Positions 8,322-59,939 of a stretch of DNA of 64,000 nt are shown piece by piece. Each line of letters begins with the position of its first letter. Positions within the stretch are counted from its first letter, which is position 1. Source of the DNA: Dehalococcoidia bacterium (GTDB taxonomy: Bacteria > Chloroflexota > Dehalococcoidia > GIF9 > AB-539-J10); NCBI GenBank assembly GCA_030612025.1, contig JAUWOR010000005.1, positions 1 to 64,000 of the forward strand, given 5' to 3'. A model generated the notes under the pieces. The model was not told where the DNA came from and did no database searches. It saw nothing but the letters and a program-made list of their open reading frames with translations. The translations under genes and the position numbers were made by a program.

Positions 8322-9748
8322 TGAATAATAAATCTATTCCCTTGCTTATCCATGGTGGCCGTATAGTTGACCCTGGCCGGGGTATAGACCAAGTTGGTGA
8401 TTTACTTGTTGACGAGGGCAAGATTATGCAGTTGGGAGGCATTGTCATCCTGAGTGCAGCGAAGGATCTCGAAGCGAAGCAACGTCTGGCAATCGATGCT
8501 ACGGGCTTAGTCATTTGCCCTGGCTTCGTAGACCTTCATTGTCATCTTCGTGAGCCGGGCTTTGAGGATAAGGAAACTATTGCCACTGGGACAAAAGCCG
8601 CCGCCTTAGGCGGCTTTACTACTATCTGTTGTATGGCAAATACGAATCCACCACTGGATAATCGAGTAACTGTAGATTATGTGAAACAGAAGGCAAGCAA
8701 AGAAGGTTTTGTTAATGTTCTCCCTATAGGGTGTATTACCAAAGGGAGGAAAGGCGAAGAAATTTGTCAGATGGCTGAGCTGGCTGAAGCTGGAGTGGTT
8801 GGTTTTAGCGACGATGGCGACCCTGTAATGAGCTCACAAGTTATGCGTAGTGCCATGGATTACAGCCGCGCCCTTGGCTTGCCAGTTATCGACCATTGTG
8901 AAGACAAGGCTTTGAGCCATGGTGGAATCATGAATGAAGGTTGGGTATCTGTAAGGCTGGGGTTAAAGGGGATACCAGCAGCCGCTGAGGAAAGCATGGT
9001 AGCTCGTGACCTCGCTTTGGCAAAGTTAATTGGAGCTAGGGTTCATATTGCCCATGTAAGCACTTGCGGCTCAGTGGAGCTTATACGCCATGCCAAGGAG
9101 AAGGGAATTTTGGTCACTGCTGAGGTTACTCCTCACCACTTAACATTAACTGAAGAAAGAATTATGGGCAGGGCCTCATCTAAACCCTCTCCCTTGAAGG
9201 GAGAGGGAAGGGTGAGGGTGGAGCAAAGCAATCTCAATTCCTTGGCTTATGATACCAACGCTAAAGTAAATCCCCCCTTGCGGACTGGAGATGACATAAA
9301 GTGCTTAGTTAAAGGACTCAAGGACGGAGTAATTGATGCTATCGCTACCGACCATGCTCCCCATACCTTGGCGGACAAAAAATGTGAACTAGATTTAGCT
9401 GCCTTTGGCATTAGCGGGTTTGAAACTGCCTTTGGTTGTCTCATGGGCTTGGTGCATAGAGGAAAAATAAGCTTGATTACGCTGATTTCTAAGCTTACTG
9501 CCGAACCAGCGAAGATAATGGGTAAGGATGACAAATTAGGCACCTTGAAGATAGGTGCTCCAGCCAATATCACTATATTTGATCCTAATCGGGAATGGGT
9601 AGTGGATAGCCGCAATTTTGTCTCTAAAGGCAGGAATACCCCATTCGATGGCTGTAGATTTAAGGGCAAAGTAGTAGCAACTGTAGTTAACGGCAGGATA
9701 GCTTATATGGATGACTCCCTACCCTCTCCCTTGACGGGAGAGGATTGA
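8318..9748 (+). CDS. pyrC: Dihydroorotase with repeat-derived insertions
   Basis: DLHCHLREPG, KVNPPLR, IATDHAPH, SKGRNTPF. Confidence 0.97.
   Translation: MMNNKSIPLLIHGGRIVDPGRGIDQVGDLLVDEGKIMQLGGIVILSAAKDLEAKQRLAIDATGLVICPGFVDLHCHLREPGFEDKETIATGTKAAALGGFTTICCMANTNPPLDNRVTVDYVKQKASKEGFVNVLPIGCITKGRKGEEICQMAELAEAGVVGFSDDGDPVMSSQVMRSAMDYSRALGLPVIDHCEDKALSHGGIMNEGWVSVRLGLKGIPAAAEESMVARDLALAKLIGARVHIAHVSTCGSVELIRHAKEKGILVTAEVTPHHLTLTEERIMGRASSKPSPLKGEGRVRVEQSNLNSLAYDTNAKVNPPLRTGDDIKCLVKGLKDGVIDAIATDHAPHTLADKKCELDLAAFGISGFETAFGCLMGLVHRGKISLITLISKLTAEPAKIMGKDDKLGTLKIGAPANITIFDPNREWVVDSRNFVSKGRNTPFDGCRFKGKVVATVVNGRIAYMDDSLPSPLTGED
8443..8487. repeat. Family A repeat (nested) in-frame in pyrC
   Basis: TGTCATCCTGAGTGCAGCGAAGGATCTC-GAAGCGAAGCAACG encodes VILSAAKDLEAKQR. 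Confidence 0.85.
9174..9235. repeat. Family B+A repeat in-frame in pyrC
   Basis: CCCTCTCCCTTGAAGGGAGAGGG..GGTGAGGGTG-GAGCAAAGCAATCTC encodes PSPLKGEGRVRVEQSNL. Confidence 0.85.
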
Positions 9749-9780
9749 GGTGAGGGTGATGAGCGGAGCGAAGCAATCTC
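9717..9780. repeat. Family B+A repeat forming the pyrC 3' end and the whole pyrC-carA spacer
   Basis: CCCTCTCCCTTGACGGGAGAGGATTGAGGTGAGGGTG..GAGCGGAGCGAAGCAATCTC, immediately followed by the carA ATG. Confidence 0.85.
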
Positions 9781-10911
9781 ATGACTAAGAAAGCGATTTT
9801 AATTCTTGAGGATGGCGCAGTTTACGAGGGCTATTCCTTTGGTGCTGAAACCACCACTTATGGTGAAGTGGTTTTCGATACCAGCATGACTGGCTATCAG
9901 GAAATGCTCACCGACCCCTCATTTGCCGGTCAGATTTTGGTGCCTACTTATCCTTTGATTGGCAACTATGGCATTAACGAATCCGATTTTGAATCCAGGC
10001 AAATTCAGGTGAGAAGTTTAGCCGTTCGAGAATATTGCCTCCAACCAAGTCACTGGCAAAGCACCCGTACCTTACATGAATTTCTGCTGGCTAATGGTAT
10101 ACCTGGCATCAGTGGGATAGATACCCGTGCTTTAACCCGTCACCTACGGACAGTCGGAGTAATGATGGGAATCATTACGTCGGAAATGGCTGTTGAGGAG
10201 GCATTGAAGGAGTTAAAGGATTCGCCTAGATATGACTCTATTGACTTTGTTCACCAAGTTACCACGGAGAAGCCATATGAGTGGCAATCCAATATGCCTG
10301 TCATTGCAAACTTGCCTTCCCTGTCATTGCGAGGAGCATCAGCGACGAAGCAATCTCATATCGCTGTTATCGACTGTGGCCTGAAGTACAACATGTTGCG
10401 GCTATTGAGCCAGTTGGGCTGCCGGGTGACAGTTGTTTCTTGCAACACTTCGGCTGAGGATATCATGGAATTGAAGCCCGATGGCATTGTACTATCACCA
10501 GGCCCGGGCAATCCCGCTCTCCTTGATTACATAGTGGAGACAATAAGAAAACTGCTAGGTAAGAAACCGACTATGGGCATTGGCCTTGGGCAAAATCTAA
10601 TTGGACAAGCCTTCGATGCTAAAAGCTTAAAGCTCAAATTTGGACACCGAGGCAGTTATCCCGTCCGCGATTTGGCCACTGGCAAGGTCTACATAACTGC
10701 TCAGAATCATAGCTATGCTATAGATGCCGATAGTTTGAAAGGGGGGCTTGAGGTCAGTCACCTAAACTTAAACGATGGTACGGTGGAAGGTCTCTGCCAT
10801 CGGGATTTGCCTATCCTGTCTATTCAATACCATCCCGAGGCCTCCCCGGGGCCATTGGATAATGTGTATCTGTTTGAGAGATTTCTGGAGATGGTAAGAG
10901 AGGAGAAGTGA
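9781..10911 (+). CDS. carA: Carbamoyl-phosphate synthase small chain (catalytic Cys absent)
   Basis: GEVVF.T.MTGYQE.LTDPS, GIDTRALT, LSPGPGNP, QNH, QYHPEASPGP; GIGLGQN in place of GICLGHQ. Confidence 0.96.
   Translation: MTKKAILILEDGAVYEGYSFGAETTTYGEVVFDTSMTGYQEMLTDPSFAGQILVPTYPLIGNYGINESDFESRQIQVRSLAVREYCLQPSHWQSTRTLHEFLLANGIPGISGIDTRALTRHLRTVGVMMGIITSEMAVEEALKELKDSPRYDSIDFVHQVTTEKPYEWQSNMPVIANLPSLSLRGASATKQSHIAVIDCGLKYNMLRLLSQLGCRVTVVSCNTSAEDIMELKPDGIVLSPGPGNPALLDYIVETIRKLLGKKPTMGIGLGQNLIGQAFDAKSLKLKFGHRGSYPVRDLATGKVYITAQNHSYAIDADSLKGGLEVSHLNLNDGTVEGLCHRDLPILSIQYHPEASPGPLDNVYLFERFLEMVREEK
10298..10357. repeat. Family A repeat (nested) in-frame in carA
   Basis: CTGTCATTGCAAA...CTGTCATTGCGAGGAGCATCAGCGACGAAGCAATCTC encodes VIANLPSLSLRGASATKQS. 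Confidence 0.88.
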
Positions 10912-10921
10912 GTATTGTCAA

Positions 10922-11004
10922 TGTCATTGCGAGGAGCACGGCGACGAAGCAATCTGGAAGGTGGAGAAAAGATGAGAGTGCTTCGCCTTCGGCTCGCAAT
11001 GACA
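10922..11004. repeat. Family A inverted pair (complete hairpin element)
   Basis: TGTCATTGCGAG..GAAGCAATCT ... GTGCTTCG..CTCGCAATGACA. Confidence 0.88.
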
Positions 11005-11052
11005 CAATAAGGGGGGTGAGGTCTTTAAGTAATCTCTGGTAGGAGTGAATCT

Positions 11053-11949
11053 ATGAAACTAGAGAAAAGGTACTTTAGTCAAAAAGCGCGTCCAAAGGAT
11101 ATCATTGGTTATCTTGAGACAAATTACTTTAAAGCTCGCCAGACCCACTTAAACGAAGACGAACACCAGTATCTTATAGATACTCTTCTACTAATACATG
11201 AAAGAAGGAAAACTCTACCTTCACCTATGCGAGAACTAGGGCTTTGGGAAAAAGAAACCATGTGGAATTCATTAGCTTTCAATGAGACTATGTTGTTTTC
11301 TGTCCTCGATTACCCAGCATCCATTAGAGCATTATCTCTTTATGCTGTGTATAAGAGAATTCCAATGCAATCGTACCAATATGAGGAAGAATACGATAAA
11401 ACAATGACGCCGATTGTGAAAATGTATGAAGCTGGTGTATTTACAGATGTTTATGAAGTCAAAAACCCAAAAGTTATGAAAGGAATGGGTGAAAAGGAAT
11501 ATATTTTCCCAAATATAGAAGAATTGAAACAGATAGGGCTTGAATTGATGGATGAAGAAGCAATTAATATGTTTTACAAACGATTCGGCGAATATTTACG
11601 TAAAGAAGAATTCAAAATGCTTGCTGGAGGCGAGTCGTCTCTATTCACCTGGACCAATCTTAACAACAAGATTAGATGTTTTTGCAAAAAGATTGATAGA
11701 GCTAGGGAAGCGTTAGAGCAATACCAGAAAGACGGCGATATTGAAAGGTTTATCGCCAACTCCGGTATGGTTGACCTAACTAGCGTACAACAAAAGTATG
11801 TTCTGGAGACGTTTGTCCTTGAGAAAGCTCGTCTCGGTCTTCCCGGAGTAGAGTTGGCTACTTCTGGTAATTGGAATGAAACCGGTAAGGAAGATGCTAT
11901 AAAGCAGATTGCCAGAGAGATAACCCTTAATGCTGACTTATTATACTAA
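11053..11949 (+). CDS. Hypothetical protein (orphan, AT-rich)
   Basis: 298-aa ORF with an AGGAG SD; no recognised motif. Confidence 0.7.
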   Translation: MKLEKRYFSQKARPKDIIGYLETNYFKARQTHLNEDEHQYLIDTLLLIHERRKTLPSPMRELGLWEKETMWNSLAFNETMLFSVLDYPASIRALSLYAVYKRIPMQSYQYEEEYDKTMTPIVKMYEAGVFTDVYEVKNPKVMKGMGEKEYIFPNIEELKQIGLELMDEEAINMFYKRFGEYLRKEEFKMLAGGESSLFTWTNLNNKIRCFCKKIDRAREALEQYQKDGDIERFIANSGMVDLTSVQQKYVLETFVLEKARLGLPGVELATSGNWNETGKEDAIKQIAREITLNADLLY

Positions 11950-12037
11950 AGTGCAACCTATGTCAACGCTTCACAGGGAGAGGTAGACTAGAAGACGGTG
12001 AGGGGTTGAAGAATGGCTAAGAAGTGCTAAGAAGTGC

Positions 12038-12544: not shown

Positions 12545-12561
12545 TCACTAAAGGAGCAAAC

Positions 12562-12651
12562 TTGAAACCATCTAAGGTCCTGGTGATTGGCTCGGGGCCG
12601 ATTGTTATCGGGCAGGCGGCGGAATTTGAATTTGAGGAGGTAAAGCTATGA
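12562..12651 (+). pseudogene. Duplicated carB 5' fragment (29-codon ORF)
   Basis: AAGGAG SD, TTG start, encodes [29 protein letters not shown]; TGA overlaps the next ATG. Confidence 0.9.
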
Positions 12652-12962
12652 AATCAAAAATTAGTGTATATGAAAGTTCTTTGGAGTTGCTTAAGAGCAT
12701 GATAAAGGATGTGTTTAAGGGCGAAGATGTTAGGGTTATTTTGTTTGGCTCAAGGGGAAGAGGAGATCACCTCGAAACTTCAGATATGGATGTAGGGATA
12801 CTTTCGAAGGGGGAAGTGAATAAAAGCAAAATCACTTTATTCCGGGACAGGATAGAGAATTCGAACATACCCTATAAAGTGGATGTGGTTGACCTATCCC
12901 GAGCATCCAAAGAGTTCACTCAAGTAGTATTAAAGGAGGGAGTGATAATTTGGCAAAGTTAG
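12648..12962 (+). CDS. Minimal nucleotidyltransferase (MNT) antitoxin-like protein
   Basis: LFGSRGRGD...SDMD (GS-x10-DxD), KVDVVD. Confidence 0.9.
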   Translation: MKSKISVYESSLELLKSMIKDVFKGEDVRVILFGSRGRGDHLETSDMDVGILSKGEVNKSKITLFRDRIENSNIPYKVDVVDLSRASKEFTQVVLKEGVIIWQS

Positions 12963-13351
12963 AACGAAGAATAAAGGACGTGGAGAAAGCTTTGCGAACA
13001 TTGAAGGAGATATCTTGTGAGCCTTATTCGGTAGTGGTCAGGGATGCTGCTATTCAGAGGTTTGAATATACCTTTGAGGCATTCTGGAAATTCTTAAGAG
13101 ACTATCTAAGGGAGGCTGAAGGCATTAGGTGTAACTCACCTAAGTCATGTTTCAGGGAGGCTTTGGGTGCTGGACTTATAAGCGAGGAGAAAACTGTGAC
13201 CTGCCTTGAAATGACCGATAATAGAAATCTGACCTCGCATACTTATATAGAGCAGATAGCTGAGCAAATATATAGAAAGATAGAGCAGTATTACAAACTC
13301 ATGGAGGCTATTTTTAATCTCGCTAAGGCAAAATTGCAAAATAAAAGCTAG
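12950..13351 (+). CDS. HEPN / HI0074-type nucleotidyltransferase substrate-binding protein
   Basis: RDAAIQRFEYTFEAFWK, SPKSCFR, RNLTSHTY (R-x4-H). Confidence 0.9.
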   Translation: MAKLERRIKDVEKALRTLKEISCEPYSVVVRDAAIQRFEYTFEAFWKFLRDYLREAEGIRCNSPKSCFREALGAGLISEEKTVTCLEMTDNRNLTSHTYIEQIAEQIYRKIEQYYKLMEAIFNLAKAKLQNKS

Positions 13352-13375: not shown

Positions 13376-16300
13376 GTGTCTAAAATATCTAAAGTCTTAG
13401 TTATTGGTTCAGGGCCGATAATAATCGGGCAGGCGGCGGAGTTCGATTATTCCGGAACTCAGGCGTGCCGGGCTTTGCGAGAGGAGGGCATTACCACGGT
13501 GTTGGTAAATTCGAACCCGGCTACCATCATGACCGATGAGGGCATCGCCGATATTGTCTATATTGAGCCGCTTACTGTGGAAGTTTTGGCTCGCATAATT
13601 GAAAGGGAACGCCCTGATGGATTGCTACCTACCCTTGGAGGACAGACGGGGCTTAATCTGGCAGTGGAGCTGGCAAATGCTGGGATACTTGATAAATATA
13701 GTGTGAAGTCTCTGGGCACACCTATAGAAACGATAAAGAAAGCTGAGGAAAGGTCTTTATTTAAGAAGCTTCTTATCGATATTGGTGAGCCTGTGCCTAC
13801 CAGTGCCACAGTGAAGTCAGTAGAAGAAGCTAAAGGACTGGCAAAGTCCATTGGTTTGCCTCTGATTATCCGGCCCTCTTATACCTTAGGTGGCACTGGG
13901 GGTGGCATCGCCCATACTATGGAGGAACTTGAATCTGTGGTTGCCAACGGCTTGGACAATAGCATGAGCCACGAAGTCTTGGTAGAGCAGTGTGTTTTGG
14001 GCTGGAAGGAAATTGAATTCGAGGTCATGCGGGATGCTGCTGACAATTGCATTGCTGTCTGCAGCATGGAAAATGTTGACCCTATGGGGGTGCATACTGG
14101 GGACAGCATCGTGGTAGCTCCTAGCCAGACTCTTACCGATAAGGAATACCAGATGCTCCGGTCGGCCAGCCTGAGAATTATTAGAGCTTTAGGCATTGAA
14201 GGCGGCTGTAATATACAGTTTGCTCTTACTCCCCATCCTATAGTTGCAGAAAAGTGGGCTCCAGACCAAAAAGGGGTTACGGAAAGCCAGTATTACGTAA
14301 TTGAGGTCAACCCGCGCGTTAGCCGTAGCTCAGCTTTGGCTAGCAAAGCCACTGGCTATCCCATTGCCCGTGTGGCAGCCAAGATAGCCATAGGCAGAAG
14401 ACTTGATGAAATTCCCAATAGGGTTACCGGAAAAACCTTAGCATCTTTTGAGCCGGCTTTGGATTACTGTGTGGTTAAAATTCCAAGGTGGCCCTTTGAT
14501 AAATTTGCTTTGGGTGATCGAGATGTTGGCAGCCAGATGAAAGCCACAGGCGAGGTGATGGCTATTGATAGGTGTTTTGAAGCTGCTTTGCAAAAGGCGG
14601 TCCGCTCTTTGGAATTTGGCAAGCGCACCCTCCTCTGGGAGGATTCAAGATGGAGCAAAGGTGAGGTTGATTCCTACCCACTTCACCCTAACGACTTAAG
14701 AGTATGGGCGATTACGGCGGCGCTGAGAAGGGGAGCTACACCTGAGGAACTCTCTCAACGTACTGGAATAGACCCTTGGTTTATCTACAAGTTTCAGAAT
14801 ATCGTTGACATGGAGAGACGACTTCTCTCTGAGCCATTGAAACCAGAGCTTTTATGGCAGGCAAAGCGGCTCGGTTTCTCTGATGAGCAGATTGGCACTT
14901 TAGCTGATAGATTGCTGGAACAGGTGAGGCGAACTCGCCATGAGTGGCACATTTGTCCGGTATATAAGATGGTGGATACCTGTGCTGCTGAATTTGAGGC
15001 GGAAACTCCCTATTTCTATAGCACCTATGAGAAGGAGAACGAAGCTGAGCCTTTAGAAGGCAGAAAAGCTGTAGTCATCGGCAGTGGTCCCATACGCATT
15101 GGGCAAGGAATTGAGTTTGACTATTGCTGTGTCCACTCAGCCTGGGCACTTCAGGAGGCAGGCATAAAGAGTATCTTGGTTAATTCCAATCCAGAAACGG
15201 TTTCCACTGATTTCGATACCAGCGATCGTCTTTACTTCGAAGCCTTAGATGAGGAGAGCATTCGGGACATACTTGAAAATGAAGGTATTGCGAGCCAAGC
15301 GAAGCAATCTCCCCCCTCCATTGTTCAGTTTGGTGGGCAAACAGCCATCAACATGGTTGAGCCACTGGCTCGGAGTAACATGCCAATACTTGGCTCAGGT
15401 GCTGAGGCCATAGATATAGCTGAAGACCGTCACCGCTTCGAGGATTTCCTAGATAGGTTAGGCATTCTTCAGCCACCAGGGGCTGGTGTGTCATCCATCG
15501 AAGAGGCATTGAGTGTAGCTAAATCTTTGGATTATCCGCTGCTTGTCCGTCCTAGCTATGTCCTTGGTGGCAGAGCTATGGAAATCGTCTACAACGAGGC
15601 TGAGTTAATTCGCCACCTGACATTGGCTTTAGAGCTAGATAGCCAACATAAGGTGCTCATTGATAAATATCTACAAGGTAAGGAGGTTGAGGTGGATGCC
15701 GTGGCTGACGGAGAGAGAGTGCTTATCCCGGGCATAATGGAGCATATTGAAAGGGCTGGCGTGCACAGTGGTGATTCTATAGCTGTCTATCCAGGGGTGA
15801 ATTTGACCATGGACGAAGTGAGTACCATAGTGGATTATGCCACTAGAATTGGGTTAGCTCTTCAAGTTAAAGGCTTGCTGAATATACAAATGGTAATCAT
15901 GAGGGAGAATGGATCTTCATTTATATATGTGCTTGAGGTAAATCCCCGAGCTAGTAGAACTGTTCCTTTTATTTCCAAGGTGACTGGTATGCCCTTAGTG
16001 CGAATTGCTACCAAGGTGATGACTGGTGTTAGCCTTAAAGAGCAAGGTTATGAAGGTGGATTATGGAAGAGGCAAAAGTTAGTTGGTATAAAGGCCCCCG
16101 TTTTCTCTATGTCCAAGCTGATTGGAGTGGATAACTACCTTGGCCCTGAGATGAAATCTACCGGTGAAGTAATGGGCATTGATTATAGTTTTGAGGCTGC
16201 TCTAGCCAAGGCACTTTTAGCCGCTGACTTGATGTTGCCTCAAAAGGGCAGTTTGCTGCTTAGCATCGCAGATAGAGATAAAGCTGAGTCTGTACCACTT

Positions 16301-16663
16301 ATTAAAAAGTTACATTCCCTTCACTATGGTCTCTATGCCACGGAAGGCACAGCGGCCATGATTGACTCCATAGGACTTCCGGTGAGAATGGTAACTAAAA
16401 AGCTAAGTGAAGGACATCCCAATGTCATTGATGTTATTCGGGATAATTCTGTAAGTGGAGTGGTCAATACCGTTACTGGAGGGCGTATCCCGCTAAAGGA
16501 TGGATTTGATATCCGACGTGCCGCGGCAGAAAAGAGGATACCTTGCTTTACTTCACTAGATACCATTCGAGTAACTATAGAAGCGCTGGCGAGTACCAGT
16601 CAGATTTTCCATGTTCAGCCGCTTAAGGAGTATCTAAAGAGCAAAAGTAAAAATGCAAAATGA
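13376..16663 (+). CDS. carB: Carbamoyl-phosphate synthase large chain
   Basis: [28 protein letters not shown], duplicated ATP-grasp halves, C-terminal MGS domain. Confidence 0.98.
15287..15311. repeat. Family A half-site in-frame in carB
   Basis: ATTGCGAGCCAAGCGAAGCAATCTC encodes IASQAKQS just before the conserved VQFGGQT. Confidence 0.8.
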
Positions 16664-16744: not shown

Positions 16745-17638
16745 ATGAAACAATCCCTGTGCGCTATAACTTCTAATGTGGAGATCTCCCCCGGCATACA
16801 CCTTATGTGGCTTGAAGCGCCCGATATAGCTGCCATAGCTCAGCCAGGGCAGTTCATTACAGTGCGCTGTGAAGGTTTAATGTTACGTCGCCCCTTTAGT
16901 GTGCATCAGGCGGATTCGAGCCGAATTGCTCTTCTGTTCAAAATAGTGGGTAAAGGCACTCTTTGGCTGGCGCAACGCCAAGGAGGTGATAAAGTAGATA
17001 TTCTCGGACCTTTGGGTAACGGATTTAGCGTCGGACCAAGTTTGAGGAACCTATTATTAGTGGCTGGAGGCATTGGTATTGCACCGCTCGTTTTTTTGGC
17101 GCAGAGTGCTTCACCGCAACACTCAATAACACTAATTTATGGAGCAAGCACGGCTAAGGAACTCTACGCATTCTCGTCGTTACCTCTCACCTTTAATTCC
17201 CCTCTCTCGAAAGGAGAGGGAAAGAGAAGGTGTGAAGAGCGAAGCAATCTCTTGTCTTTTCCTGACTCCGTTCGATTTATTCGCGTTACCGAGGACGGCA
17301 GTATGGGCAAAAAAGGCGTGGTAACCGATATACTACCTGATTTCCTGGGTTGGGCTGACCAGATATATGCCTGTGGGCCAATAGATATGTATAAGGCGAT
17401 GGCAGACCTAATTTGTCATTCTGAGGGAGCGGAGCGACCGAAGAATCTCGCTCAGGATAAAGTCCGCAAAGAGTCTAAGCTAAAGAGATGTCAGGTTTCT
17501 CTTGAAGTGCGAATGGGATGTGGCATTGGAGCTTGCTATGGCTGCACCATAAATACAAGGAAAGGACTAAAGAAGGTGTGTCACGATGGGCCAGTATTTG
17601 CATTAGACGATATTCTATGGGAGGAGGTAAGAATATGA
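16745..17638 (+). CDS. pyrK: Dihydroorotate dehydrogenase electron transfer subunit
   Basis: LRRPFS, GPLGNGF, AGGIGIAP, YACGP, MGCGIGACYGC, CHDGPVF. Confidence 0.93.
   Translation: MKQSLCAITSNVEISPGIHLMWLEAPDIAAIAQPGQFITVRCEGLMLRRPFSVHQADSSRIALLFKIVGKGTLWLAQRQGGDKVDILGPLGNGFSVGPSLRNLLLVAGGIGIAPLVFLAQSASPQHSITLIYGASTAKELYAFSSLPLTFNSPLSKGEGKRRCEERSNLLSFPDSVRFIRVTEDGSMGKKGVVTDILPDFLGWADQIYACGPIDMYKAMADLICHSEGAERPKNLAQDKVRKESKLKRCQVSLEVRMGCGIGACYGCTINTRKGLKKVCHDGPVFALDDILWEEVRI
17183..17251. repeat. Degenerate family B+A repeat in-frame in pyrK
   Basis: CCTCTCACC..CCCTCTCTCGAAAGGAGAGGG..GAGCGAAGCAATCTC encodes PLTFNSPLSKGEGKRRCEERSNL. Confidence 0.8.
17414..17476. repeat. Family A repeat in-frame in pyrK
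   Basis: TGTCATTCTGAGGGAGCGGAGCGACCGAAGAATCTCGCTCAGG encodes CHSEGAERPKNLAQDK. Confidence 0.88.
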
Positions 17639-17647
17639 CGACGCACC

Positions 17648-17712
17648 CTGTCATTGCGAGCTTTTCCTTGTCATTCTGAGCGAAGCGAAGAATCTTAAAG
17701 CGAAGCAATCTC
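17648..17712. repeat. Nested family A repeat (intergenic)
   Basis: GTCATTGCGAG[..GTCATTCTGAGCGAAGCGAAGAATCT..]AGCGAAGCAATCTC. Confidence 0.88.
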
Positions 17713-17731
17713 TTTGGAAGGAGGTAGGAAT

Positions 17732-32835: not shown

Positions 32836-32898
32836 TGTCATTCCGAGCCCTATGGGCGAAGAATCTCTTGTATGGACTCCTCGCTTCGCTCAGAGTAA
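32836..32898. repeat. Family A inverted pair, degenerate
   Basis: TGTCATTCCGAG..GCGAAGAATCTC ... GGACTCCTCGCTTCGCTCAGAGTAA. Confidence 0.75.
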
Positions 32899-36738: not shown

Positions 36739-38018
36739 TGAGCACCGAAGAAATTGAGTTTCCCTATGGCGATTCTTCTATAAAAGCTAGAATACCCACT
36801 AAGAACATAACTTGTATTTTAAGCTCAAAGTATGTAAAAGGGCTTGAAAATGAGAGGGAGGCTATCACCAATAGCCTGAGGTCTCCGATAGGATGTTCAC
36901 CCCTTCGAGATTGTGTTACTAAAAATGATAAAGTTGTAGTTCTGGTTACGGATAATACCAGGCCATGTCCCGACGATAGGCTGCTTCCTCCAATATTGGC
37001 TGAGTTAGAAGAAAAAGTGCCTCGGGAGAACATAACCATAATAATTGCTCTCGGTTTGCACCCGCTTTTAAACAAAGATGAGCTAGTCAAATTGCTCGGC
37101 CGGGATATAGTTGAGAACTACAACGTGGTAAATCATGACGTTAACCAAACTGTATATATCGGCACGACATCCCGGGGTACTCCGGTTGACATAAATACCA
37201 AGGTGATGGAGGCGGATTTCCGAATCAGCACTGGGTATATTGAGCCTCACTTTTTCGCTGGTTTCTCTGGCGGTAGGAAAAGTATAGCCCCTGGTGTATT
37301 CAGCGTCAGGTCAGCTTATAAGAACCACAGTTATAAAATGATAGAGCATCCGCGTACTAGAGCTGGGATTCTCAAGGGAAATCAACTCCACGAAGACTTG
37401 ATGGAGCAGGCGAAAATGGCTAAACTAGATTTTATAGTTAACGTGCTTTTAAACTGGTCTATTCGCTACCGGGAGAGGCAAATTACGCATGTAGTAGCTG
37501 GGGATTTCGTAAAGGCTCATGAAAGGGGCTGTGAGCTAGAGAGGGCTATTGCCGAGGTAAAAGTTGACCATAAGGCAGACATAACCATTACCACAAACAC
37601 CGGAGCGCCACTGGACTTGGATTTGTATCAAAGTTGTAAGGGAATAGATACCGCCGCAGAGATAACCCGGGATGGAGGGATCGTAATAGTAGCTGCGTCT
37701 TGCTTCGCCGGAGTTGGGCCGGAAGCATTTAGGGAAGTGCATGCCTCTTGTAGCCGTCCTATAGAGGTTCTGCAGAAAGTAAGGCGCGAAGAGCCGCTAG
37801 GCGTTCAATGGGAAAATCAAGTATTAGCCCGCACCCAATTGAAGAATGATGTTTACCTGGTGTCAAATCTGGAAGATAGCGTGGTTAAAGATATGATGAT
37901 AACACCCATCCGCACGATAGAGGAAGGTTTAGAGAAAGCATTTAAAGTTCTGGGAAGCGATGTTGAGATTGCTGTGATTCCAGAAGGTCCATTAGTGATT
38001 CCTTTGCTGCAAGATTGA
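36738..38018 (+). CDS. larA: Nickel-pincer lactate racemase family protein
   Basis: DNTRP, GLH, EPHFFAGFSGGRKS, NH, YQSCKG. Confidence 0.92.
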   Translation: MSTEEIEFPYGDSSIKARIPTKNITCILSSKYVKGLENEREAITNSLRSPIGCSPLRDCVTKNDKVVVLVTDNTRPCPDDRLLPPILAELEEKVPRENITIIIALGLHPLLNKDELVKLLGRDIVENYNVVNHDVNQTVYIGTTSRGTPVDINTKVMEADFRISTGYIEPHFFAGFSGGRKSIAPGVFSVRSAYKNHSYKMIEHPRTRAGILKGNQLHEDLMEQAKMAKLDFIVNVLLNWSIRYRERQITHVVAGDFVKAHERGCELERAIAEVKVDHKADITITTNTGAPLDLDLYQSCKGIDTAAEITRDGGIVIVAASCFAGVGPEAFREVHASCSRPIEVLQKVRREEPLGVQWENQVLARTQLKNDVYLVSNLEDSVVKDMMITPIRTIEEGLEKAFKVLGSDVEIAVIPEGPLVIPLLQD

Positions 38019-49745: not shown

Positions 49746-50635
49746 CGCTTATCTTGTGGTATAGCGTAGCCTATAAGCTTATAAACCAGTTTGGCCAACA
49801 GAAAAGCACAAGAAGCTGGACCCTCTTGAGGGCAGAACTCCATTAAATCAAAGCCAACTATGTGCCTATGAAGGGCTACCAACCTCAGCAGATTTAAGAC
49901 TTCCTGCCATTGCATGCCCTCAGGTTCAGGAGTGCCCACTGCTGGCATAATTGAGGGGTCAAAGACATCCACGTCTATGGTTAGATAAACGTTTTCGCTG
50001 AGCGTGGCTGTTATTTGCTCGGCGGAAGCTGCACTTGATGCCAAATCAGACATATAGAAAGGTGTCATCTTGTGCTGGTTTAAGAATTGTTTCTCTTCCC
50101 AGCTAAGGCTGCGCACTCCAACTTGAACAATGGGGCAAAGCTCGAAGATGCGACGCATAACGCAAGCCTGGCTATATTTGGTTCCTAGATATTTATGGCG
50201 AAGGTCGGCATGAGCATCCAGTTGCAGCACGGAAAGCTCGGAGAATGTTTCCTTGAAAGCCTGGACTGCTCCTAAAGAGAGCGAGTGTTCCCCACCCAGC
50301 ATTACCACAAATTTCCCCTTTTGTATTAATCCCCTGGTTATATGATAGACCCTGTCTATCATATCTTTGGGGCTGCTCATCACAGACTCTACTTCTGGCA
50401 GAGTATGAATGCCAACTTTATATATCTCCCGGTTTAGCTCTAAGTCATAAAGTTCCAGGTATTGTGAGGCATCAATGATAGCTTGTGAGCCATGACGGGT
50501 GCCACCTCGCCACTCAGTTGTGTTCTCGTAGGGGATGGGTAGGATGGCTACTTTGGCCTTTTCCAAATCAAAGTAAGGTGGTGCTAATCCCGCGAAGACT
50601 CGTCGTGGCAGGAATACCTCTTCTTTATTCCCCAT
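49742..50635 (-). CDS. speB: Agmatinase
   Basis: GGEHS, DAHAD, DVDVFD, GTPEP. Confidence 0.92.
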   Translation of the reverse strand: MGNKEEVFLPRRVFAGLAPPYFDLEKAKVAILPIPYENTTEWRGGTRHGSQAIIDASQYLELYDLELNREIYKVGIHTLPEVESVMSSPKDMIDRVYHITRGLIQKGKFVVMLGGEHSLSLGAVQAFKETFSELSVLQLDAHADLRHKYLGTKYSQACVMRRIFELCPIVQVGVRSLSWEEKQFLNQHKMTPFYMSDLASSAASAEQITATLSENVYLTIDVDVFDPSIMPAVGTPEPEGMQWQEVLNLLRLVALHRHIVGFDLMEFCPQEGPASCAFLLAKLVYKLIGYAIPQDKR

Positions 50636-51023
50636 GGTAAACAAAATTCGGGGGATTAGCTACCGCAGCAAATTCTGCTGACCCTTCCCTATTAATAAGG
50701 CAAGTCCTCAGTTTAGCTAACTGAAATTTATCTCGCAAATCTTTAATTGCTTTATCCGCATCAAAATCCCTGCAGGAAAAGATATCTATATTGACATAAT
50801 TGCTCTCAACAAAGGTATGGACGCTAATATGGCTCTCAGCAATAAAAACAAATCCAGACATCCCCCAATCCTCTGACTTTGATCCTACATACCTAAGCAC
50901 GTAAGGTGGTGAAATTCTTGTCATGCCAATTTCAGAGGGGTAAGTTTCCAACCAATGCTTAAGAGAATCCATGTCTTGAAGAATTTTTTGGTTAGCGGAA
51001 TAACCATCTATAATCAAATGCAT
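50625..51023 (-). CDS. speD: SpeD-family pyruvoyl decarboxylase proenzyme
   Basis: MHLIIDG, IAESHISVHTF, DIFSC. Confidence 0.88.
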   Translation of the reverse strand: MHLIIDGYSANQKILQDMDSLKHWLETYPSEIGMTRISPPYVLRYVGSKSEDWGMSGFVFIAESHISVHTFVESNYVNIDIFSCRDFDADKAIKDLRDKFQLAKLRTCLINREGSAEFAAVANPPNFVYHGE

Positions 51024-51074: not shown

Positions 51075-51287
51075 GTAGGGTCGGGGCTTGTCTCCGACCG
51101 GCACTTTAACAATATTAGCTCCCAGCCCCTCACTTCTTGTCATTCTGAGGGAGAGAAGCGACCCAAGAATCTCCTCTTCACGGAGCCTGCCCTGAGCACT
51201 AAGAGATTCTTCGCTATGCTCAGAATGACACCAAGCGAAGGGTTCAGAGCTTTGGCTCATCAGGACAAGCTCCGCAATGCAGCCATC
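51075..51287. repeat. Cluster of a GTAG REP and nested family A repeats
   Basis: GTAGGGTCGGGG..CTCCGACC; TGTCATTCTGAG..AAGAATCTC; GAGCCTGCCCTGAGC[..GAGATTCTTCG..CAGAATGACA]..AGCGAAGGG. Confidence 0.85.
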
Positions 51288-51289
51288 AA

Positions 51290-52585
51290 TTAGCATTTAA
51301 TTGCCGAAACACCTAAGTATTTTTCTACTATTGCCATGGCACAATATTTGCCACACATGCTGCAAGTTTCTCCTGCTGTGGGAATCTTACTATGAATTCG
51401 CTTTGAAAGCTCTGGATCCAAGGACAATTCAATTTGAGTGGCCCAATCAAGATTCTTGCGAGCCCGGGACATTCTTTCATCCCACTCCTTGGCACCCTTT
51501 ACCCCCTTAACAATGTCACCAGCATGAGCAGCTATGCGAGAGGCTATCACTCCTTGCTTTACATCTTCTATATTGGGAAGGGAAAGGTGTTCCGTGGGAG
51601 TGACGTAGCACAAGAAATCTGCCCCAGCGGCGGCAGCAATGGCACCTCCGATAGCACCAGTAATGTGGTCGTAGCCAGCACCTATATCAGTTACCAATGG
51701 ACCCAGGACATAGAAAGGCGCTCCGTGGCACAAGCTTTTTTCTAATTGAACATTGCTGGCTACTTGATCCAGGGGTAAATGTCCTGGCCCTTCGACAAAA
51801 ACTTGAATTTCAGCTTCCCTAGCGCGCTTTACTAATTCACCTTGGATGATTAACTCCTCGATTTGAGCCCTATCGGTGGCATCGGCGATACTTCCTGGAC
51901 GCAAGCTATCTCCCAAGCTTAAGGCAAAATCACATTTATGGGCTAAATCTAACAAGCGGTCATAATATTGATATAGAGGATTTTCTTCCTCGTTATGTAG
52001 CATCCAGCCAGTGAGGAAGGCGCCTCCCCGAGAAACTATATCAGTTGTTCTACCTTGGTTTTTTAGCCGTGCTATGGATGCCCGAGTTACACCACAATGA
52101 ACGGTCATGAAATCAACGCCGTCTCTAGCTTGCTCCTCAACCACGTCAAAGATCTCGTCAACAGTCATGTTCAGGATAGCTCCGTGCTTCTCAATAGCCT
52201 CAATCCCAGCTTGATAAATGGGCACAGTTCCCATGGGCAAGGGGCTAGCGTTGATGATGGCTCTTCTGATGGCTGAAATATCACCTCCGGTGCTCAAATC
52301 CATCACTGTATCGCTGCCAGAATCAATGGCGGCTTGTAGTTTCTTAAGTTCTGTGTCTAAATCAAAAAAGTCCGATGATGTACCTATATTGGCATTAATT
52401 TTAGTCCTTAGTCCCTTGCCTATGCCACAAGGGACTAGGTTTGCATGATTAGGATTGGCTGGAATTACGATTGAGCCCTCAACCAAGCCTTGAAGAACAA
52501 AGTTTACCTCTACCCTTTCCTGCTCAGCTACATGTTTTACCTGGGGCGAAACAACACCACTTCGAGCCAGTTCTAGTTGAGTCAT
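51290..52585 (-). CDS. thiC: ThiC-family radical SAM protein (phosphomethylpyrimidine synthase or Bza-like paralogue)
   Basis: [33 protein letters not shown]. Confidence 0.9.
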
Positions 52586-54405: not shown

Positions 54406-54434
54406 GAGATTGCTTCGCTCCGCTCGCAATGACA
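54406..54434. repeat. Family A half-site forming the recG-argS spacer
   Basis: Minus strand TGTCATTGCGAGCGGAGCGAAGCAATCTC-T-ATG. Confidence 0.88.
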
Positions 54435-54437: not shown

Positions 54438-56933
54438 CTAGCTCCATTCAGCGCTTTTAGACCACACTTGAGATAATTGCTGTCTTAGAAGGCGATGTTC
54501 GGGTTTTCCCAAATTACTGTCACTTTGAAAAAGGGCTATTGCCTCCTGCCGAGCCAGCTCTAGGAGGCGTAAATTTGATAGTTTAGCTATTTTAAGGTCA
54601 GGTAGGCCACTTTGGTGTGTGCCAAAAAATTCTCCCGGGCCTCTTAGCTCTAGATCCTTCTCGGCTAAAGCAAAACCATCGTGAGTTTTCTCCATTAGCT
54701 GAAGGCGGTCTCTTGCTTCAGGTGTGGTTGCTTCGCTTCGCTCGCAATGACAGGAAGGGATAAGTAGGCAATAAGCTTGCTCTTTATCTCGGCCCACTCG
54801 CCCTCTAAATTGATGGAGCTGTGATAGCCCGAAGCGCTCAGCGCCCTCCACTAACATTACTGTGGCGTTAGGTATATCAATGCCCACTTCTACCACCGAT
54901 GTTGACACTAGAATATCAAGCATACCTTCTCGGAAGCGGCGCATTACCTTTTCTTTATCACCAGGGGGCATTCGCCCATGGAGTAACCCCAATTTTAAAT
55001 CTGGGAAAATTTCTCTGGATAGATACTCGTATTCACTTGTAGCGGCTTTTGCCTCAAGTGTTTCTGATTCTTCAATCAGAGGACAGATAATGAAAGCTTG
55101 CTTACCATTACTGACCTGGCGACGGAGGAAGCTATAAGCTTTTTCTGTGTACTGGGGCTCAAGGAATCTTGTTTTCACTTCCTGTCGTCCTGGAGGCAGC
55201 TCGTCAATAACTGAGAGGTCGAGGTCACCGTAAAGTGTCAGTGCCATAGTTCGCGGGATAGGGGTGGCGGTCATAACCAATATATGAGGGTTAAAGCCTT
55301 TTTGACGCAATGCAGAACGTTGTAAAACACCGAATCTTTGTTGCTCATCTGTCACTGCTAACCCTAGCTGGTAAAATTCTACCTCTTTTTGGATAAGGGC
55401 GTGGGTGCCAATGACAATATCAATTTCACCCTGCTTAATTTTACGATGTAAATCCTCCTTCACGCTATCTTTAAGGCTGCCGATGAGCAAAGCGATAGTA
55501 AGTGGCTGGGAGAGAAAGCCTATATAGCATTCAACATTATTGCCTATTTTCTCTTTCTGCGTGCTGGCGTTAGACAAATAATCACAGATATTGCTGAAAT
55601 GCTGCTCAGCCAGCACTTCAGTGGGCGCCATCAACGCTCCTTGGTAGCTGTTGGCCGCTGCCATTAATAAAGCCAAAGTAGCAATCACGGTCTTGCCACT
55701 CCCTACTTCGCCTTGAAGAAGGCGTGACATAGCTCTGGGTTGCTTAAGGTCAGCTAAAATTTCCCATAGTACTCGCTCCTGAGCTCGGGTCAAAGTGAAG
55801 GGTAAACAATGTAAGAACCCGTCAATAACCTCCTGATATATATTAAAGGCATGGCCTGGCTGGCTTTCTTGCCAATCCCGCTTTCTTGCCAGCACGCCTA
55901 ATTGAAGTAAGAATAGCTCATCAAAGGCTACCCTCTCCTTTGCCCTCCCCGCTATTAAGTGGCCGTCAGGATAGTGGATTTGAGCAATCGCTTCAGGAAG
56001 ATTTAATAGCTGGTAGCGGTTTTTTATCTCCAAGGGTAAGAAATCGCTCACTCGCCATGCCCAACCATCAATGGCTTCTTTCGTCCATTTCCTCACTTGC
56101 CGGGGATACAAGCCTTGAGTAAGAGGATAAATGGGGACCAAGCGGCCAGTGTGGATCAGTTCTTTATTCTCAAGCAATTCCCATTCAGGAGACTGGAAGA
56201 CTTTTTGACCCTTGAATAAACTGACTGTACCACTAATTACTACCTTGGCGTTGGTGGGAAATCTTTTAGCCAGATAAGGTTGGTTGAACCAGACTACTTT
56301 GATGTTCCCAGTCTCATCGCTCACTATTGCCTCAGTGCCTTGCCGATTACCAAAAGTAGCTATCCTAGCTTGCCATATTGTAGCTACAATAGTTTGCTCC
56401 TCACCTTCCTTAAGTTCAGAGATAGGTTTCCTCTGGCTGTAATCGACATACCTCCGGGGGAAAAAATAAAGTAAATCATGCATTGTTCTCACATCTAGCT
56501 TGGCAAATTTAGTGGCTACACGGGGTGTAATGCCTTTGATAATAGTTATAGGGGAATTTAATCCTTCGCTTCTTTTCCCAGGGCGTGACGTAACTGTTAC
56601 CCTCACCTTATTCCTCTCTTGTAAGGAAGAAGAGAATTCATTACATAGAGGAGAGGTGAGGGTGCCTTGCTTTACTTCTTCCAGCTTGCTTAGCCAGTCG
56701 AAGAGACGCATTACACATTTCTTACGCTCGTCTACATCACAGGAGCCGTAATTGGAGTTAGCTAAATTGAGTTTATCGAATTCAGCTAAAAGTTGCTGGT
56801 TATTTACGCCTTGCCTGATTTGTCCTGCCTGTTTGTGAAGATATTTATCCAAACCACCGATTACTGCTTTATCGGTATATCCTTGCTTACGCTCCAGTTC
56901 AAGGATTTTTCTTAGTGAATCGGTAGTTATCAC
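54438..56933 (-). CDS. recG: ATP-dependent DNA helicase RecG
   Basis: GSGKT, MTATPIPRT, QFRGRVGR, DLELRGPGE, wedge domain (WFNQPY). Confidence 0.97.
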   Translation of the reverse strand: MITTDSLRKILELERKQGYTDKAVIGGLDKYLHKQAGQIRQGVNNQQLLAEFDKLNLANSNYGSCDVDERKKCVMRLFDWLSKLEEVKQGTLTSPLCNEFSSSLQERNKVRVTVTSRPGKRSEGLNSPITIIKGITPRVATKFAKLDVRTMHDLLYFFPRRYVDYSQRKPISELKEGEEQTIVATIWQARIATFGNRQGTEAIVSDETGNIKVVWFNQPYLAKRFPTNAKVVISGTVSLFKGQKVFQSPEWELLENKELIHTGRLVPIYPLTQGLYPRQVRKWTKEAIDGWAWRVSDFLPLEIKNRYQLLNLPEAIAQIHYPDGHLIAGRAKERVAFDELFLLQLGVLARKRDWQESQPGHAFNIYQEVIDGFLHCLPFTLTRAQERVLWEILADLKQPRAMSRLLQGEVGSGKTVIATLALLMAAANSYQGALMAPTEVLAEQHFSNICDYLSNASTQKEKIGNNVECYIGFLSQPLTIALLIGSLKDSVKEDLHRKIKQGEIDIVIGTHALIQKEVEFYQLGLAVTDEQQRFGVLQRSALRQKGFNPHILVMTATPIPRTMALTLYGDLDLSVIDELPPGRQEVKTRFLEPQYTEKAYSFLRRQVSNGKQAFIICPLIEESETLEAKAATSEYEYLSREIFPDLKLGLLHGRMPPGDKEKVMRRFREGMLDILVSTSVVEVGIDIPNATVMLVEGAERFGLSQLHQFRGRVGRDKEQAYCLLIPSCHCERSEATTPEARDRLQLMEKTHDGFALAEKDLELRGPGEFFGTHQSGLPDLKIAKLSNLRLLELARQEAIALFQSDSNLGKPEHRLLRQQLSQVWSKSAEWS
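54728..54752. repeat. Family A half-site in-frame in recG
   Basis: Minus strand TGTCATTGCGAGCGAAGCGAAGCAA encodes CHCERSEA. Confidence 0.88.
56599..56664. repeat. Degenerate family B repeat in-frame in the recG N-terminal linker
   Basis: ACCCTCACCTTATTCCTCTC...GAGGAGAGGTGAGGGTG encodes TLTSPL...ERNKVRV. Confidence 0.75.
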
Positions 56934-56945
56934 TTTGCGAAGGCG

Positions 56946-57227: not shown

Positions 57228-57235
57228 TACTCTCT

Positions 57236-57264
57236 GCCCCTGAAAAACTTAGTTTTTCAGGGGC
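57236..57264. other. Perfect 14-bp inverted repeat between fakA and the degV fragment
   Basis: GCCCCTGAAAAACT-T-AGTTTTTCAGGGGC. Confidence 0.6.
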
Positions 57265-57270
57265 CCGAGG

Positions 57271-58899: not shown

Positions 58900-59006
58900 T
58901 TCTCTTCGCCTACCTTGGTACAATTGCTGCTATGACTTTAGTATGATAGCATTACTATAATACCCCGGGTATCATTTATAGTAAAGGGGGTTAAAAGAAT
59001 TTTCCC

Positions 59007-59189
59007 ATGAAGTGCGATATTTGTGGCAAAAGAGTTCAATTTGGACAGAGTGTAAGTCATTCTAAAAAGAGTACTAAACGGAAGTGGTTACCCAATATTC
59101 ATAGGGTTACAATTGTTGTGGGTGGGAAGAAGCAGAAAGTTAATATTTGCACCAGGTGTCTGCGTAGCCAATACAAAGCAGCCCATTAG
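59007..59189 (+). CDS. rpmB: 50S ribosomal protein L28 (Zn-ribbon form)
   Basis: CDICGK, VSHS, KWLPN, CTRCL. Confidence 0.96.
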   Translation: MKCDICGKRVQFGQSVSHSKKSTKRKWLPNIHRVTIVVGGKKQKVNICTRCLRSQYKAAH

Positions 59190-59851
59190 CTTATTGCTTC
59201 CCTGATTTTTTGTAATGCTTGGCTCATTCCTTCTTTAGCATTAAACACACTTGTGCCGACAACTAGAACTCTACCACCAGCCTTAACTATGCTAGATGCA
59301 TTGTTAATGGTAATACCTCCATCAACTTCGAGCTCGGCATCCACCTTTCTGCTATCAAGCATCCGGCGCAAGCGACTTATCTTTTCTAGTGTTTCAGGGA
59401 TGAAAACTTGTCCGCCGAAACCAGGGTCAACGCTCATAATAAGAATCAAATCAACCTGAGGCATAATCTCGTCTACCATGCTTAAAGAACTCGCTGGATT
59501 TAAAGCCACCCCGGCTTTTACCCCAAGTTCCTTTATTACTTGAATCGTTCGGTGGAGATGAGGGCAAGCTTCCGCATGCACGGTAATGATATCAGCGCCA
59601 GAATCGACAAAGTGGGAAATATGCCGCTCAGGCTGTTCTATCATCAAGTGGACATCTAAAGGCAAGTGTGTCCAGCTACGAAGGGAAGCCACTACTGGAG
59701 CCCCGATAGTGATATTGGGCACGAAATGTCCATCCATGACATCAATATGAATATAGTCAGCCCCTGCTTTAGTAGCCTCAGCTACTTGCTCCCCAAGGCG
59801 AGCAAAATCAGCAGAAAGGATTGATGGTGCTAGCTTAATTTTGTCCTTCAT
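59186..59851 (-). CDS. rpe: Ribulose-phosphate 3-epimerase
   Basis: APSILSADF, HIDVMDGHFVPN, PGFGGQ, EVDGG. Confidence 0.97.
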   Translation of the reverse strand: MKDKIKLAPSILSADFARLGEQVAEATKAGADYIHIDVMDGHFVPNITIGAPVVASLRSWTHLPLDVHLMIEQPERHISHFVDSGADIITVHAEACPHLHRTIQVIKELGVKAGVALNPASSLSMVDEIMPQVDLILIMSVDPGFGGQVFIPETLEKISRLRRMLDSRKVDAELEVDGGITINNASSIVKAGGRVLVVGTSVFNAKEGMSQALQKIREAIS

Positions 59852-59868
59852 TTTTTACTCCTCTGAGT

Positions 59869-59939
59869 GAGATTCTTCATTCCACTTCGTTCCATTCAGA
59901 ATGACATACTTTGTCATTCTGAGCGTAGCGAAGAATCTC
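59869..59939. repeat. Back-to-back family A pair forming the argH 3' end
   Basis: GAGATTCTTC..CAGAATGACA-TACTT-TGTCATTCTGAGCGTAGCGAAGAATCTC encodes EILRYAQNDKVCHSEWNEVE-stop. Confidence 0.9.

Follow-up and report, generated by a model that had tools for sequence, protein, structure and literature searches.

The window analyzed here is a stretch of 64,000 nucleotides, the first 64 kb of contig C1 (JAUWOR010000005.1) in the genome of an uncultured, free-living sediment bacterium of the Dehalococcoidia (G000, 1.40 Mb in 19 contigs). Within it, six housekeeping genes (pyrC, carA, carB, pyrK, recG, and argH, all identified by NCBIfam) carry in-frame copies of short palindromic repeats of two families, A and B. 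We consider it likely that family A consists of hairpins of the type targeted by the single-domain GIY-YIG nuclease Ssn, that these repeats have multiplied and are tolerated in loops of essential genes, and that they are linked to an Ssn-like nuclease. The anatomy of the repeats, their in-frame positions, their restriction to a lineage, their presence or absence within a genus, and their link with Ssn-like genes in relatives were observed directly. An earlier note on this DNA had proposed that essential enzymes of this lineage gain loop peptides from a non-autonomous repeat system, and this proposal is supported by the results below. The phenomenon is a colonization of housekeeping genes by hairpins of probable Ssn type that resembles the behavior of Rickettsia palindromic elements (RPEs), a known behavior found here at an unusually high density. 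The RPE phenomenon, known from obligate intracellular Rickettsia, is thereby extended to a free-living sediment lineage with small genomes, and would be tied to the recently described Ssn nuclease-hairpin system.

Anatomy of the repeats and their copies in six genes

Read 5' to 3', a family A unit contains (Y)TGTC, a 5-nt arm, GAG, an inner hairpin, GA(A), the complementary arm, and CTC; it is directional and 27-38 nt long. The inner hairpin is mostly GC-GAA-GC and sometimes longer (e.g. GGCAC-AAA-GTGCC). In copies with a right arm the two arms covary, ATTGC being matched by GCAAT in 54 of 57 copies, ATTCT by AGAAT in 58 of 60, and ATCCT by AGGAT in 3 of 3, and the predicted fold displays this stem. 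All three sense frames are free of stop codons and hydrophilic; one antisense frame has a stop. Family B has the form CCTCTCCC-N5-GGGAGAGG plus a one-sided GGTGAGGGTG tail, folds into a stable hairpin (-13.5 kcal/mol, z -3.7), and is present in 55 units genome-wide. A third abundant repeat, family C, consists of GTAG-tagged hairpins (GTAGTTGCCTGATTTATCAGGC, GCCCAATAAATTGGGCAACTAC, and GTAGTGCGAGGCTTTAGCCTCG).

The units measure 27-45 nt and are modular and stackable. At 28 places, a left-arm stub that lacks a right arm (20-26 nt, mostly 24; typically TGTCATTCTGAGCCCTTCGCnnCnT) lies directly 5' of another A unit, for example at 10298-10357 in carA and at 17648-17696. The upstream unit carries its own right arm at 0 of these 28 sites, and the arrays thus have a fixed polarity. 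An A right arm lies within 30 nt after 5 of the 55 B units (5-6 adjoin an A arm), and three of these are in the window. Families A and B are mostly independent modules. The idea of family B as cargo within family A describes the coding copies of the window, but it was rejected because it applies to only 5-6 of the 55 units genome-wide.

Both palindromes stand where the earlier note had placed them, and their number exceeds chance. The window has 18 matches to GTCATTSNGAG (≤1 mismatch; 6.36 expected) and 4 matches to the family B core (≤3 mismatches; 0.19 expected), and neither count was reached in any of 100 shuffles. The two most frequent 12-mers of the 1.40-Mb genome are TGTCATTCTGAG (79 copies) and TGTCATTGCGAG (78 copies).

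The earlier note had counted about ten coding insertions in the 64 kb. All ten sites were confirmed (Table 1), with two amendments. The carB copy is a replacement and not a net insertion, because its loop is variable and of similar length in distant orthologues, and the position given for argH, 59869, lies just past the stop codon of the gene, the two units there spanning 59868-59939. The orthologues came from 30 relatives: 4 belong to the same genus, 14 to the same family but other genera, and 12 to the same order but other families. When these were aligned, all 10 sites fell in a variable loop, a linker, or the C-terminus, with extra or replaced residues. In-frame translation reproduces the quoted peptides in three sense frames as well as the antisense EILRYAQND. 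The predicted coincidence of indels with repeat boundaries was also found, for example as a clean 21-nt insertion in recG. On structures, the inserts fall between the elements of solved homologues of dihydroorotase (DHOase) and PyrK, where they appear as gaps, and in models they form coil with a low predicted local distance difference test score (pLDDT).

In pyrC, site 1 is 83% identical to the intergenic sequence at 17668-17713 and makes the protein 8 residues longer there than the Aquifex DHOase (6gde). The insert is kept in 3 of 3 full-length orthologues of the genus. Across genera the same loop holds the variants VILSAAKDL, VILSE-AKQ, and VIASGAKQS, the last two being those of other genera, and in other families it is short. 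At site 2, about 26 extra residues (285-311) are unmatched between chain residues 271 and 273 of 6gde, and pLDDT is <50 over residues 283-319 in a model that is poorer overall (mean pLDDT 67.5). The unit at 9717-9780 provides the last pyrC codons, the stop codon, and the entire spacer. The pyrC frame terminates within its family B part, and its A right arm ends ...AATCTC immediately before the carA ATG (window 9776-9783). The C-terminal tails of PyrC vary in relatives (VIARSEVTKQS, VIASEAKQS, and PSPLTGED).

In carA, repeats fill the linker between the two domains. This linker is short and repeat-free in other families of the order, and in other genera of the family it holds family B, VILSEAKNL, or IIASAAKQS variants; the forms seen across genera are SLRGASATKQS, SPLKGEDKGEGEAKQS, VILSEAKNL..., and IIASAAKQS. 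The carB loop bears much longer repeat arrays in G002 and G018 and is shorter in three f1 genera (G007, G009, and G015).

In pyrK, site 3 adds about 23 residues beyond the Lactococcus lactis protein, modeled as coil with pLDDT <50 over residues 144-166. In a DNA alignment, its family B part is present in G000, G002, and G003 and missing in G004 and G001 of the same genus, and the additions sit 5' of the conserved right arm. Contigs from two other studies (runs X5 and X7) likewise pass over 17156-17237. Site 4 lies between the NAD domain and the Fe-S domain, where about 20 residues are unmatched in 5ksw_B and the model runs from a helix end into coil (pLDDT near 54 in the block 231-240). Within the genus this site holds an ATTCT-subtype unit with an extension in G000, a plain ATTGC unit in G003, and about 100 nt of extra units in G002. 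In addition, G003 alone has a consensus-perfect unit in a loop that is empty in the other four genomes.

In recG, the insert at 54726 is present in all 4 genus members aligned and absent from the other 21 orthologues aligned; its target, GAAAAATTTTCA, resembles the right end of the element. The palindrome in the N-terminal linker lacks its 18-nt center in G003 and G001. At the end of argH, as before carA, a repeat adjoins translation signals: GAGGAG comes after the tail unit, and then the next gene starts (window 59851-59880). As a separate observation, G018, which is placed in another genus, matches G000 exactly in its recG linker variant, CNEFSSSLQERN, and has the same argH tail, EILRQTQNDKVCHSEWNKVE; both are missing from the same-genus G003 and G001 (loci L099 and L124). 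This sharing may come from recombination between lineages or from a taxonomy issue.

Distribution in relatives, genome, and other phyla

Repeats were tallied in orthologues at the nucleotide level, as A copies of at least 15 bits or as B copies. Within the genus, 18 of 27 orthologues held recognizable copies; for the remaining genera of the family the count was 16 of 65, and for the remaining families of the order it was 0 of 61. The last set, in which the inserted peptides might have occurred without repeats, contains neither the repeats nor the peptides. Insertion or replacement has happened repeatedly, since a given loop holds different variants in different genera, and members of the genus differ in whether a repeat is there at all. 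The same inserts occur at the same codons in separately assembled genomes, with point differences (G002-G004 for pyrC and G001-G003 for recG).

A profile search of the genome (E ≤0.05) gave 145 family A copies. Of these, 69 are intergenic, 33 are internal to open reading frames (ORFs) of ≥150 amino acids (aa), 9 lie at or across the 3' end of such an ORF, 1 lies across a 5' end, 5 fall in an uncertain first 30 codons, and 28 lie in ORFs of 60-149 aa that are possibly not genes. Family A is thus enriched between genes, yet about a quarter of its copies (33/145) are internal. By crude gene calls, about 30 of some 1,570 long ORFs bear a copy. Pfam families were found in 25 of the 26 host ORFs outside the window; hosts include SecA, DNA polymerase I (PolA), IspH, NadC, PurH, HypD, ValRS, IleRS, TilS, PGI, RuvX, chorismate synthase, Dxr, Mfd, UvrA, topoisomerase I (TopA), a LeuC-type aconitase, PurC, and HisG.

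Internal copies use all three sense frames (VIASEAKQS, SLRAKRSN, and CHSE/HCERSEA), and 27 of the 33 are in sense orientation, more than the proportion of 0.6 that stop codons alone would predict (binomial p 0.0066). Where intergenic copies lie between co-directional genes, 23 are co-oriented and 15 opposed. The sense bias of the internal copies beyond the stop-codon expectation suggests selection on the peptide.

Family A is also widespread outside this lineage. The exact 27-28-nt unit is present in at least 119 genome stretches from many phyla; the matches listed include Nitrospirales, Acidobacteriota, Bacteroidales, Clostridia, Planctomycetota, Saccharimonadales, Cyanobacteria, Alpha- and Gammaproteobacteria, and more, with Calothrix sp. 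PCC 7716 and Mucilaginibacter sp. SG564 as cultured carriers. Among 80 cross-phylum loci (L213-L292), unvalidated stop-to-stop ORFs of ≥150 aa enclose 18 of 87 copies.

Metagenomes that contain the window stretch are cold-seep and marine-sediment runs. In four sediment or cold-seep runs, the summed contig depth in bins with repeats (10184-10497, 10812-11125, and 17406-17700) is 10-100 times that of neighboring bins; the organisms in those communities must therefore carry the repeats in very large numbers. In practice, the repeats create spurious similarity between unrelated proteins, and a first-pass similarity search for PyrK in G000 gave 30 candidates. They also break short-read assemblies.

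Ssn-like nuclease genes and the proposed source of the repeats

The motifs named NTS and SRM are the targets of Ssn, a group of single-domain GIY-YIG nucleases that act on single-stranded DNA (Chenal et al., Nat Commun 2025, PMC11893778). According to the main text of that paper, Ssn binds only the single-stranded form of the Neisseria motif, CGTCATTCCCGCGMAVGCGGGAATCYRG, and cuts a few bases upstream of it; cleavage depends most on the three bases before the palindrome, binding on the C that follows it, and 2% of NTS copies in N. meningitidis lie inside genes. Family A resembles NTS/SRM as a directional 20-50-nt hairpin whose stem is immediately preceded by GTC(A/T) and immediately followed by a C, as a repeat with hundreds of copies per genome, and, in relatives, in a motif-gene-motif layout around a nuclease gene of ~95-105 aa. 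That family A keeps GTC and C at the positions critical in NTS points to an Ssn-type parallel. There are also differences, as 19-23% of family A copies here lie inside long ORFs, compared with the 2% of NTS in N. meningitidis, the host is a free-living sediment bacterium and not a symbiont, and its nuclease gene is a truncated remnant. The terms "in-frame" and "intragenic" have 0 occurrences in the main text of PMC11893778.

The window has no Y1_Tnp, GIY-YIG, or DUF559 match, in line with the earlier note, and all such matches are on other contigs. On contig C4 (187460-187699), the C-terminal 80 residues of a small GIY-YIG protein were found (PF01541 E 0.0057, profile positions 22-74 of 78). 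The N-terminal part is missing, a family C element stands just upstream in its place, and an antisense family A unit begins at the stop codon. With a gene for a RAYT transposase 150 nt downstream of this remnant, three repeat systems meet within 1 kb. The expectation that enzyme genes of this kind would be flanked by the repeats therefore holds for the GIY-YIG remnant, with its A unit at the stop codon, but not for the RAYT genes, which are flanked by family C, or for a DUF559 gene, which has no family B copy beside it.

In relatives, we identified seven Ssn-like ORFs in six genomes, which encode 96-104 aa and match PF01541 with 50-65 bits; in two of them, repeat sequence upstream lengthens the stop-to-stop frame to 131 and 168 aa. 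In all seven, an A-like hairpin adjoins the stop codon, the start codon, or both; it was found by regular expression for five and by eye for those at L088 and L094. Of the 30 relatives, 8 have an intact small GIY-YIG gene, and all 8 carry the repeat; broken genes of this kind were found in 2. Such genes were found in 0 of 8 relatives with ≤3 family A copies, a pattern that is not a statistical test because the genomes are kin. NCBIfam gave sub-threshold matches only for the Ssn-like protein, and its closest solved relative is the UPF0213 GIY-YIG protein 1zg2. Another small GIY-YIG match in G000 (C8:118805-118954) was set aside, as it lies among aconitase-type genes and no repeats adjoin it.

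Based on these observations, we propose that family A multiplied to ~150 copies in this genus and several sister genera. Copies would land or be copied genome-wide, and selection would remove those that break genes, so that the survivors in genes would be in frame, mostly in sense orientation, and restricted to loops, linkers, and tails where 7-27 additional disordered residues are tolerated; the same permissive loops would be hit or rewritten repeatedly. This spread or exchange may be driven by an Ssn-like nuclease, which plausibly cuts single-stranded DNA immediately 5' of a hairpin already in place, the break then being repaired from another copy. A 5' cut and templated repair fit the fixed polarity of the stubs as well as the additions at pyrK site 3, which sit 5' of the conserved right arm. 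The copies in G000 are proposed to be non-autonomous relics because its nuclease gene is truncated.

Several results weigh against this explanation. The published SRM search sequence, HGTCWYN(0-2)YYVSBRHN(0-5)WNVSBRGN(0-2)RNCYNB, has 5 hits in the genome against a mean of 5.6 in 10 shuffles, and 0 of the 145 family A copies overlap a hit. Family A misses this sequence because its stem is not pyrimidine-rich, and we therefore call it SRM-like and not a demonstrated member. The small hairpin of family A has a nearest-neighbor energy of only -1.9 kcal/mol (z ~0 against shuffles); because this value is unremarkable, the stem is argued from arm covariation and not from stability. No Ssn-like gene was found in several repeat-rich genomes, namely G009 (98% complete, 168 copies) and the four incomplete members of the genus, and among the cross-phylum loci an Ssn-like ORF occurs in 1 of the 80 element-centered loci, 304 nt from the element. 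A comparison of the pyrK and recG sites gave no convincing target-site duplications or defined ends. GIY-YIG nucleases have no known strand-joining activity, and no transposition is shown for Ssn in the main text of PMC11893778. For family B, no candidate mobilizing enzyme was found, and the only DUF559 gene is not flanked by it. Finally, the related genomes are kin and not independent samples, and the gene map behind the census is made of crude, greedy longest-ORF calls (88% coding).

A more specific version of the proposal, in which the hairpins and an Ssn-type nuclease form a cut-and-copy cassette exchange that repeatedly rewrites fixed surface loops of essential enzymes, is possible but doubtful. 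In this version the nuclease would nick just 5' of a resident hairpin, and repair from other copies would stack or swap modules at that place. It draws on the 28 stubs 5' of another unit, on a single codon position where subtypes are swapped and modules added 5' of a conserved right arm, and on the different loop variants among genera. If it is true, the loops would be rewritten by an element whose 27-28-nt core is identical across bacterial phyla. The empty, filled, and swapped sites in PyrC, PyrK, CarA, and RecG are a natural series for the study of repeat movement, loop tolerance, and gain of function by added peptides.

The repeats might instead spread with no dedicated enzyme, through host processes such as replication slippage, template switching at hairpins, or homologous or microhomology recombination between copies, perhaps with uptake of foreign DNA. 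This explanation accounts for the repeat-rich genomes with no detectable Ssn-like gene, the absence of target duplications, the likeness of the recG target to the right end of the element (which fits microhomology), the subtype swaps at one site, and the exact unit in many phyla. We judge it unlikely, as the strictly conserved directional flank (TGTC...C) is hard to keep without a protein that reads the sequence, hairpins flank all Ssn-like genes found, and such genes are lacking in the relatives with few copies.

Mobilization of families A and B as REPs by the RAYT (IS200/IS605-like Y1) transposases of G000 is improbable. Family A does share with the REP/BIME/REPIN-RAYT systems short hairpins in hundreds of copies and a gene for a single-strand-hairpin enzyme bracketed by its own repeats. 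G000 has two Y1_Tnp genes (C4:187854-188141 and C18:19629-19946), each with copies of A and B in the surrounding few hundred bases. However, both genes are directly bracketed by doublets of family C (GTAGTTGCC... and GTAGTGCGA...), not by family A or B, so that the RAYT enzymes were rejected as mobilizers of A and B, and family A brackets the Ssn-like GIY-YIG genes instead. The enzymes also differ (a Y1 transposase in one case and a GIY-YIG nuclease in the other), as do the habits of the repeats. The RAYT-linked repeats of G000 stay outside genes, with 3 of 125 and 2 of 108 family C copies (~2%) internal to long ORFs, compared with 30 of 160 left arms of family A by the same method.

It is highly improbable that the inserted peptides are functional modules, such as interaction or regulatory loops, kept by selection and not as tolerated junk. 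The genus-wide retention of the recG insert and of pyrC site 1 and the sense bias noted above speak for such a role, but the same DNA yields unrelated peptides in three sense frames and in antisense, presence and variants differ among close relatives, the segments are modeled as low-confidence coil, and identical units abound between genes. That the inserts are assembly or binning artifacts of a metagenome-assembled genome is hardly credible, even though the repeats interrupt short-read contigs and depth over them rises 10- to 100-fold, since separately assembled genomes of the genus share the inserts at the same codons with accumulated point differences, all frames stay open, and a 737-nt contig of run X2 spans 8588-9324, including pyrC site 2, with 0 differences. 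This comparison used assembled contigs only, in which gaps or joints beyond the cited pieces carry no weight.

The earlier note had drawn a parallel with RPEs. RPEs are ~150 bp long and form ten families in Rickettsia (PMC10969869, summarizing Ogata et al. 2000, 2002). Both kinds of palindrome lie in frame in unrelated housekeeping genes, are translated, are compatible with the fold, and encode no transposase. Unlike RPEs, the units described here are 27-45 nt, modular, and stackable, are read in all three sense frames, occur in many phyla, and have a link to GIY-YIG genes. The parallel thus stands for in-frame behavior and fails for size and host; it is an analogy of behavior and not of membership. 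A literature search gave no report of the peptides or DNA strings of these repeats, or of in-frame copies in Dehalococcoidia; the supplementary SRM counts per genome of PMC11893778, which may include Chloroflexota, were outside this search.

Feature coordinates and neighboring observations

The features of the window are collected in Table 1. A crude gene caller places a 78-aa ORF across the inverted pair at 51137-51230.

Table 1. Host genes, repeat sites within them, and intergenic repeat units in the 64-kb window
Feature	Positions	Strand	Description
pyrC (dihydroorotase)	8318-9748	+	NCBIfam dihydroorotase E 4.5e-182; aligned with 21 orthologues; three repeat sites
pyrC site 1	8442-8487	+	Family A unit (ATCCT/AGGAT stem) and extra right-arm-like piece, read VILSAAKDLEAKQR; nhmmer E 0.0018
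pyrC site 2	9171-9240	+	Family B hairpin, then family A right arm GAGCAAAGCAATCTC, read SKPSPLKGEGRVRVEQSNL
pyrC 3' end site	9717-9780	+	Family B unit and family A right arm
carA (carbamoyl-phosphate synthase small subunit)	9781-10911	+	TIGR01368 E 1.3e-138
carA inter-domain linker site	10298-10357	+	Left-arm stub without right arm and full family A unit, read PVIANLPSLSLRGASATKQS; nhmmer E 1.2e-06
carB (carbamoyl-phosphate synthase large subunit)	13376-16663	+	NF003671, 1481.9 bits
carB site	15285-15311	+	Partial family A unit ATTGCGAGCCAAGCGAAGCAATCTC, read GIASQAKQS; 92% complementary to 54406-54430
pyrK (dihydroorotate dehydrogenase electron-transfer subunit)	16745-17638	+	NF000798 E 3e-47
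pyrK site 3	17180-17251	+	Family B hairpin with outer stem and family A right arm, read LPLTFNSPLSKGEGKRRCEERSNL
pyrK site 4	17413-17480	+	Family A, long central hairpin and 3' extension, read CHSEGAERPKNLAQDKVRKES; nhmmer E 2.7e-07
recG (ATP-dependent DNA helicase)	54438-56933	-	NF008168 E 5.4e-296
recG site 1	54726-54753	-	Family A unit read SCHCERSEA; clean 21-nt net insertion
recG N-terminal linker	56596-56664	-	Family B-type palindrome read TSPLCNEFSSSLQERNKVRVT
argH (argininosuccinate lyase)	59877-61292	-	TIGR00838 E 2.9e-189
argH tail	59868-59939	.	Two inverted family A units giving the tail EILRYAQNDKVCHSEWNEVE (last ~19 codons) and the stop codon
Intergenic family B unit	1091-1130	+	Family B search
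Intergenic inverted pair of family A units	10922-11004	.	Downstream of carA
Intergenic stub, full family A unit, and extra right arm	17648-17713	+	Downstream of pyrK
Intergenic family A unit	32836-32866	+	Family A search
Inverted pair of family A units	51137-51230	.	Gap between ORFs 50625-51023 and 51290-52585
Intergenic family A unit	54406-54434	-	Immediately downstream of the recG stop codon

On contig C11, a DUF559 gene (36626-36892) was considered as a partner of family B and rejected, as it is not flanked by B and has only generic A-type composites upstream. Upstream of this DUF559-domain gene, a small ORF (C11:37400-37720, MTVNIKIGDVVRLRKPHPCGSYEWEV...) is bracketed by composite family A elements; this ORF is putatively DUF951-like.

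Within the window, the 5' end of carB recurs as a 65-nt copy with 80% identity, 817 nt upstream of the true carB start (12565-12629 compared with 13382-13446). This copy directly precedes a toxin-antitoxin pair of the MntA-like/HepT-like type (HI0074 family, 12648-13351), and from the sequence it looks as if an MntA/HepT-like cassette had been inserted at the carB start with a target duplication.

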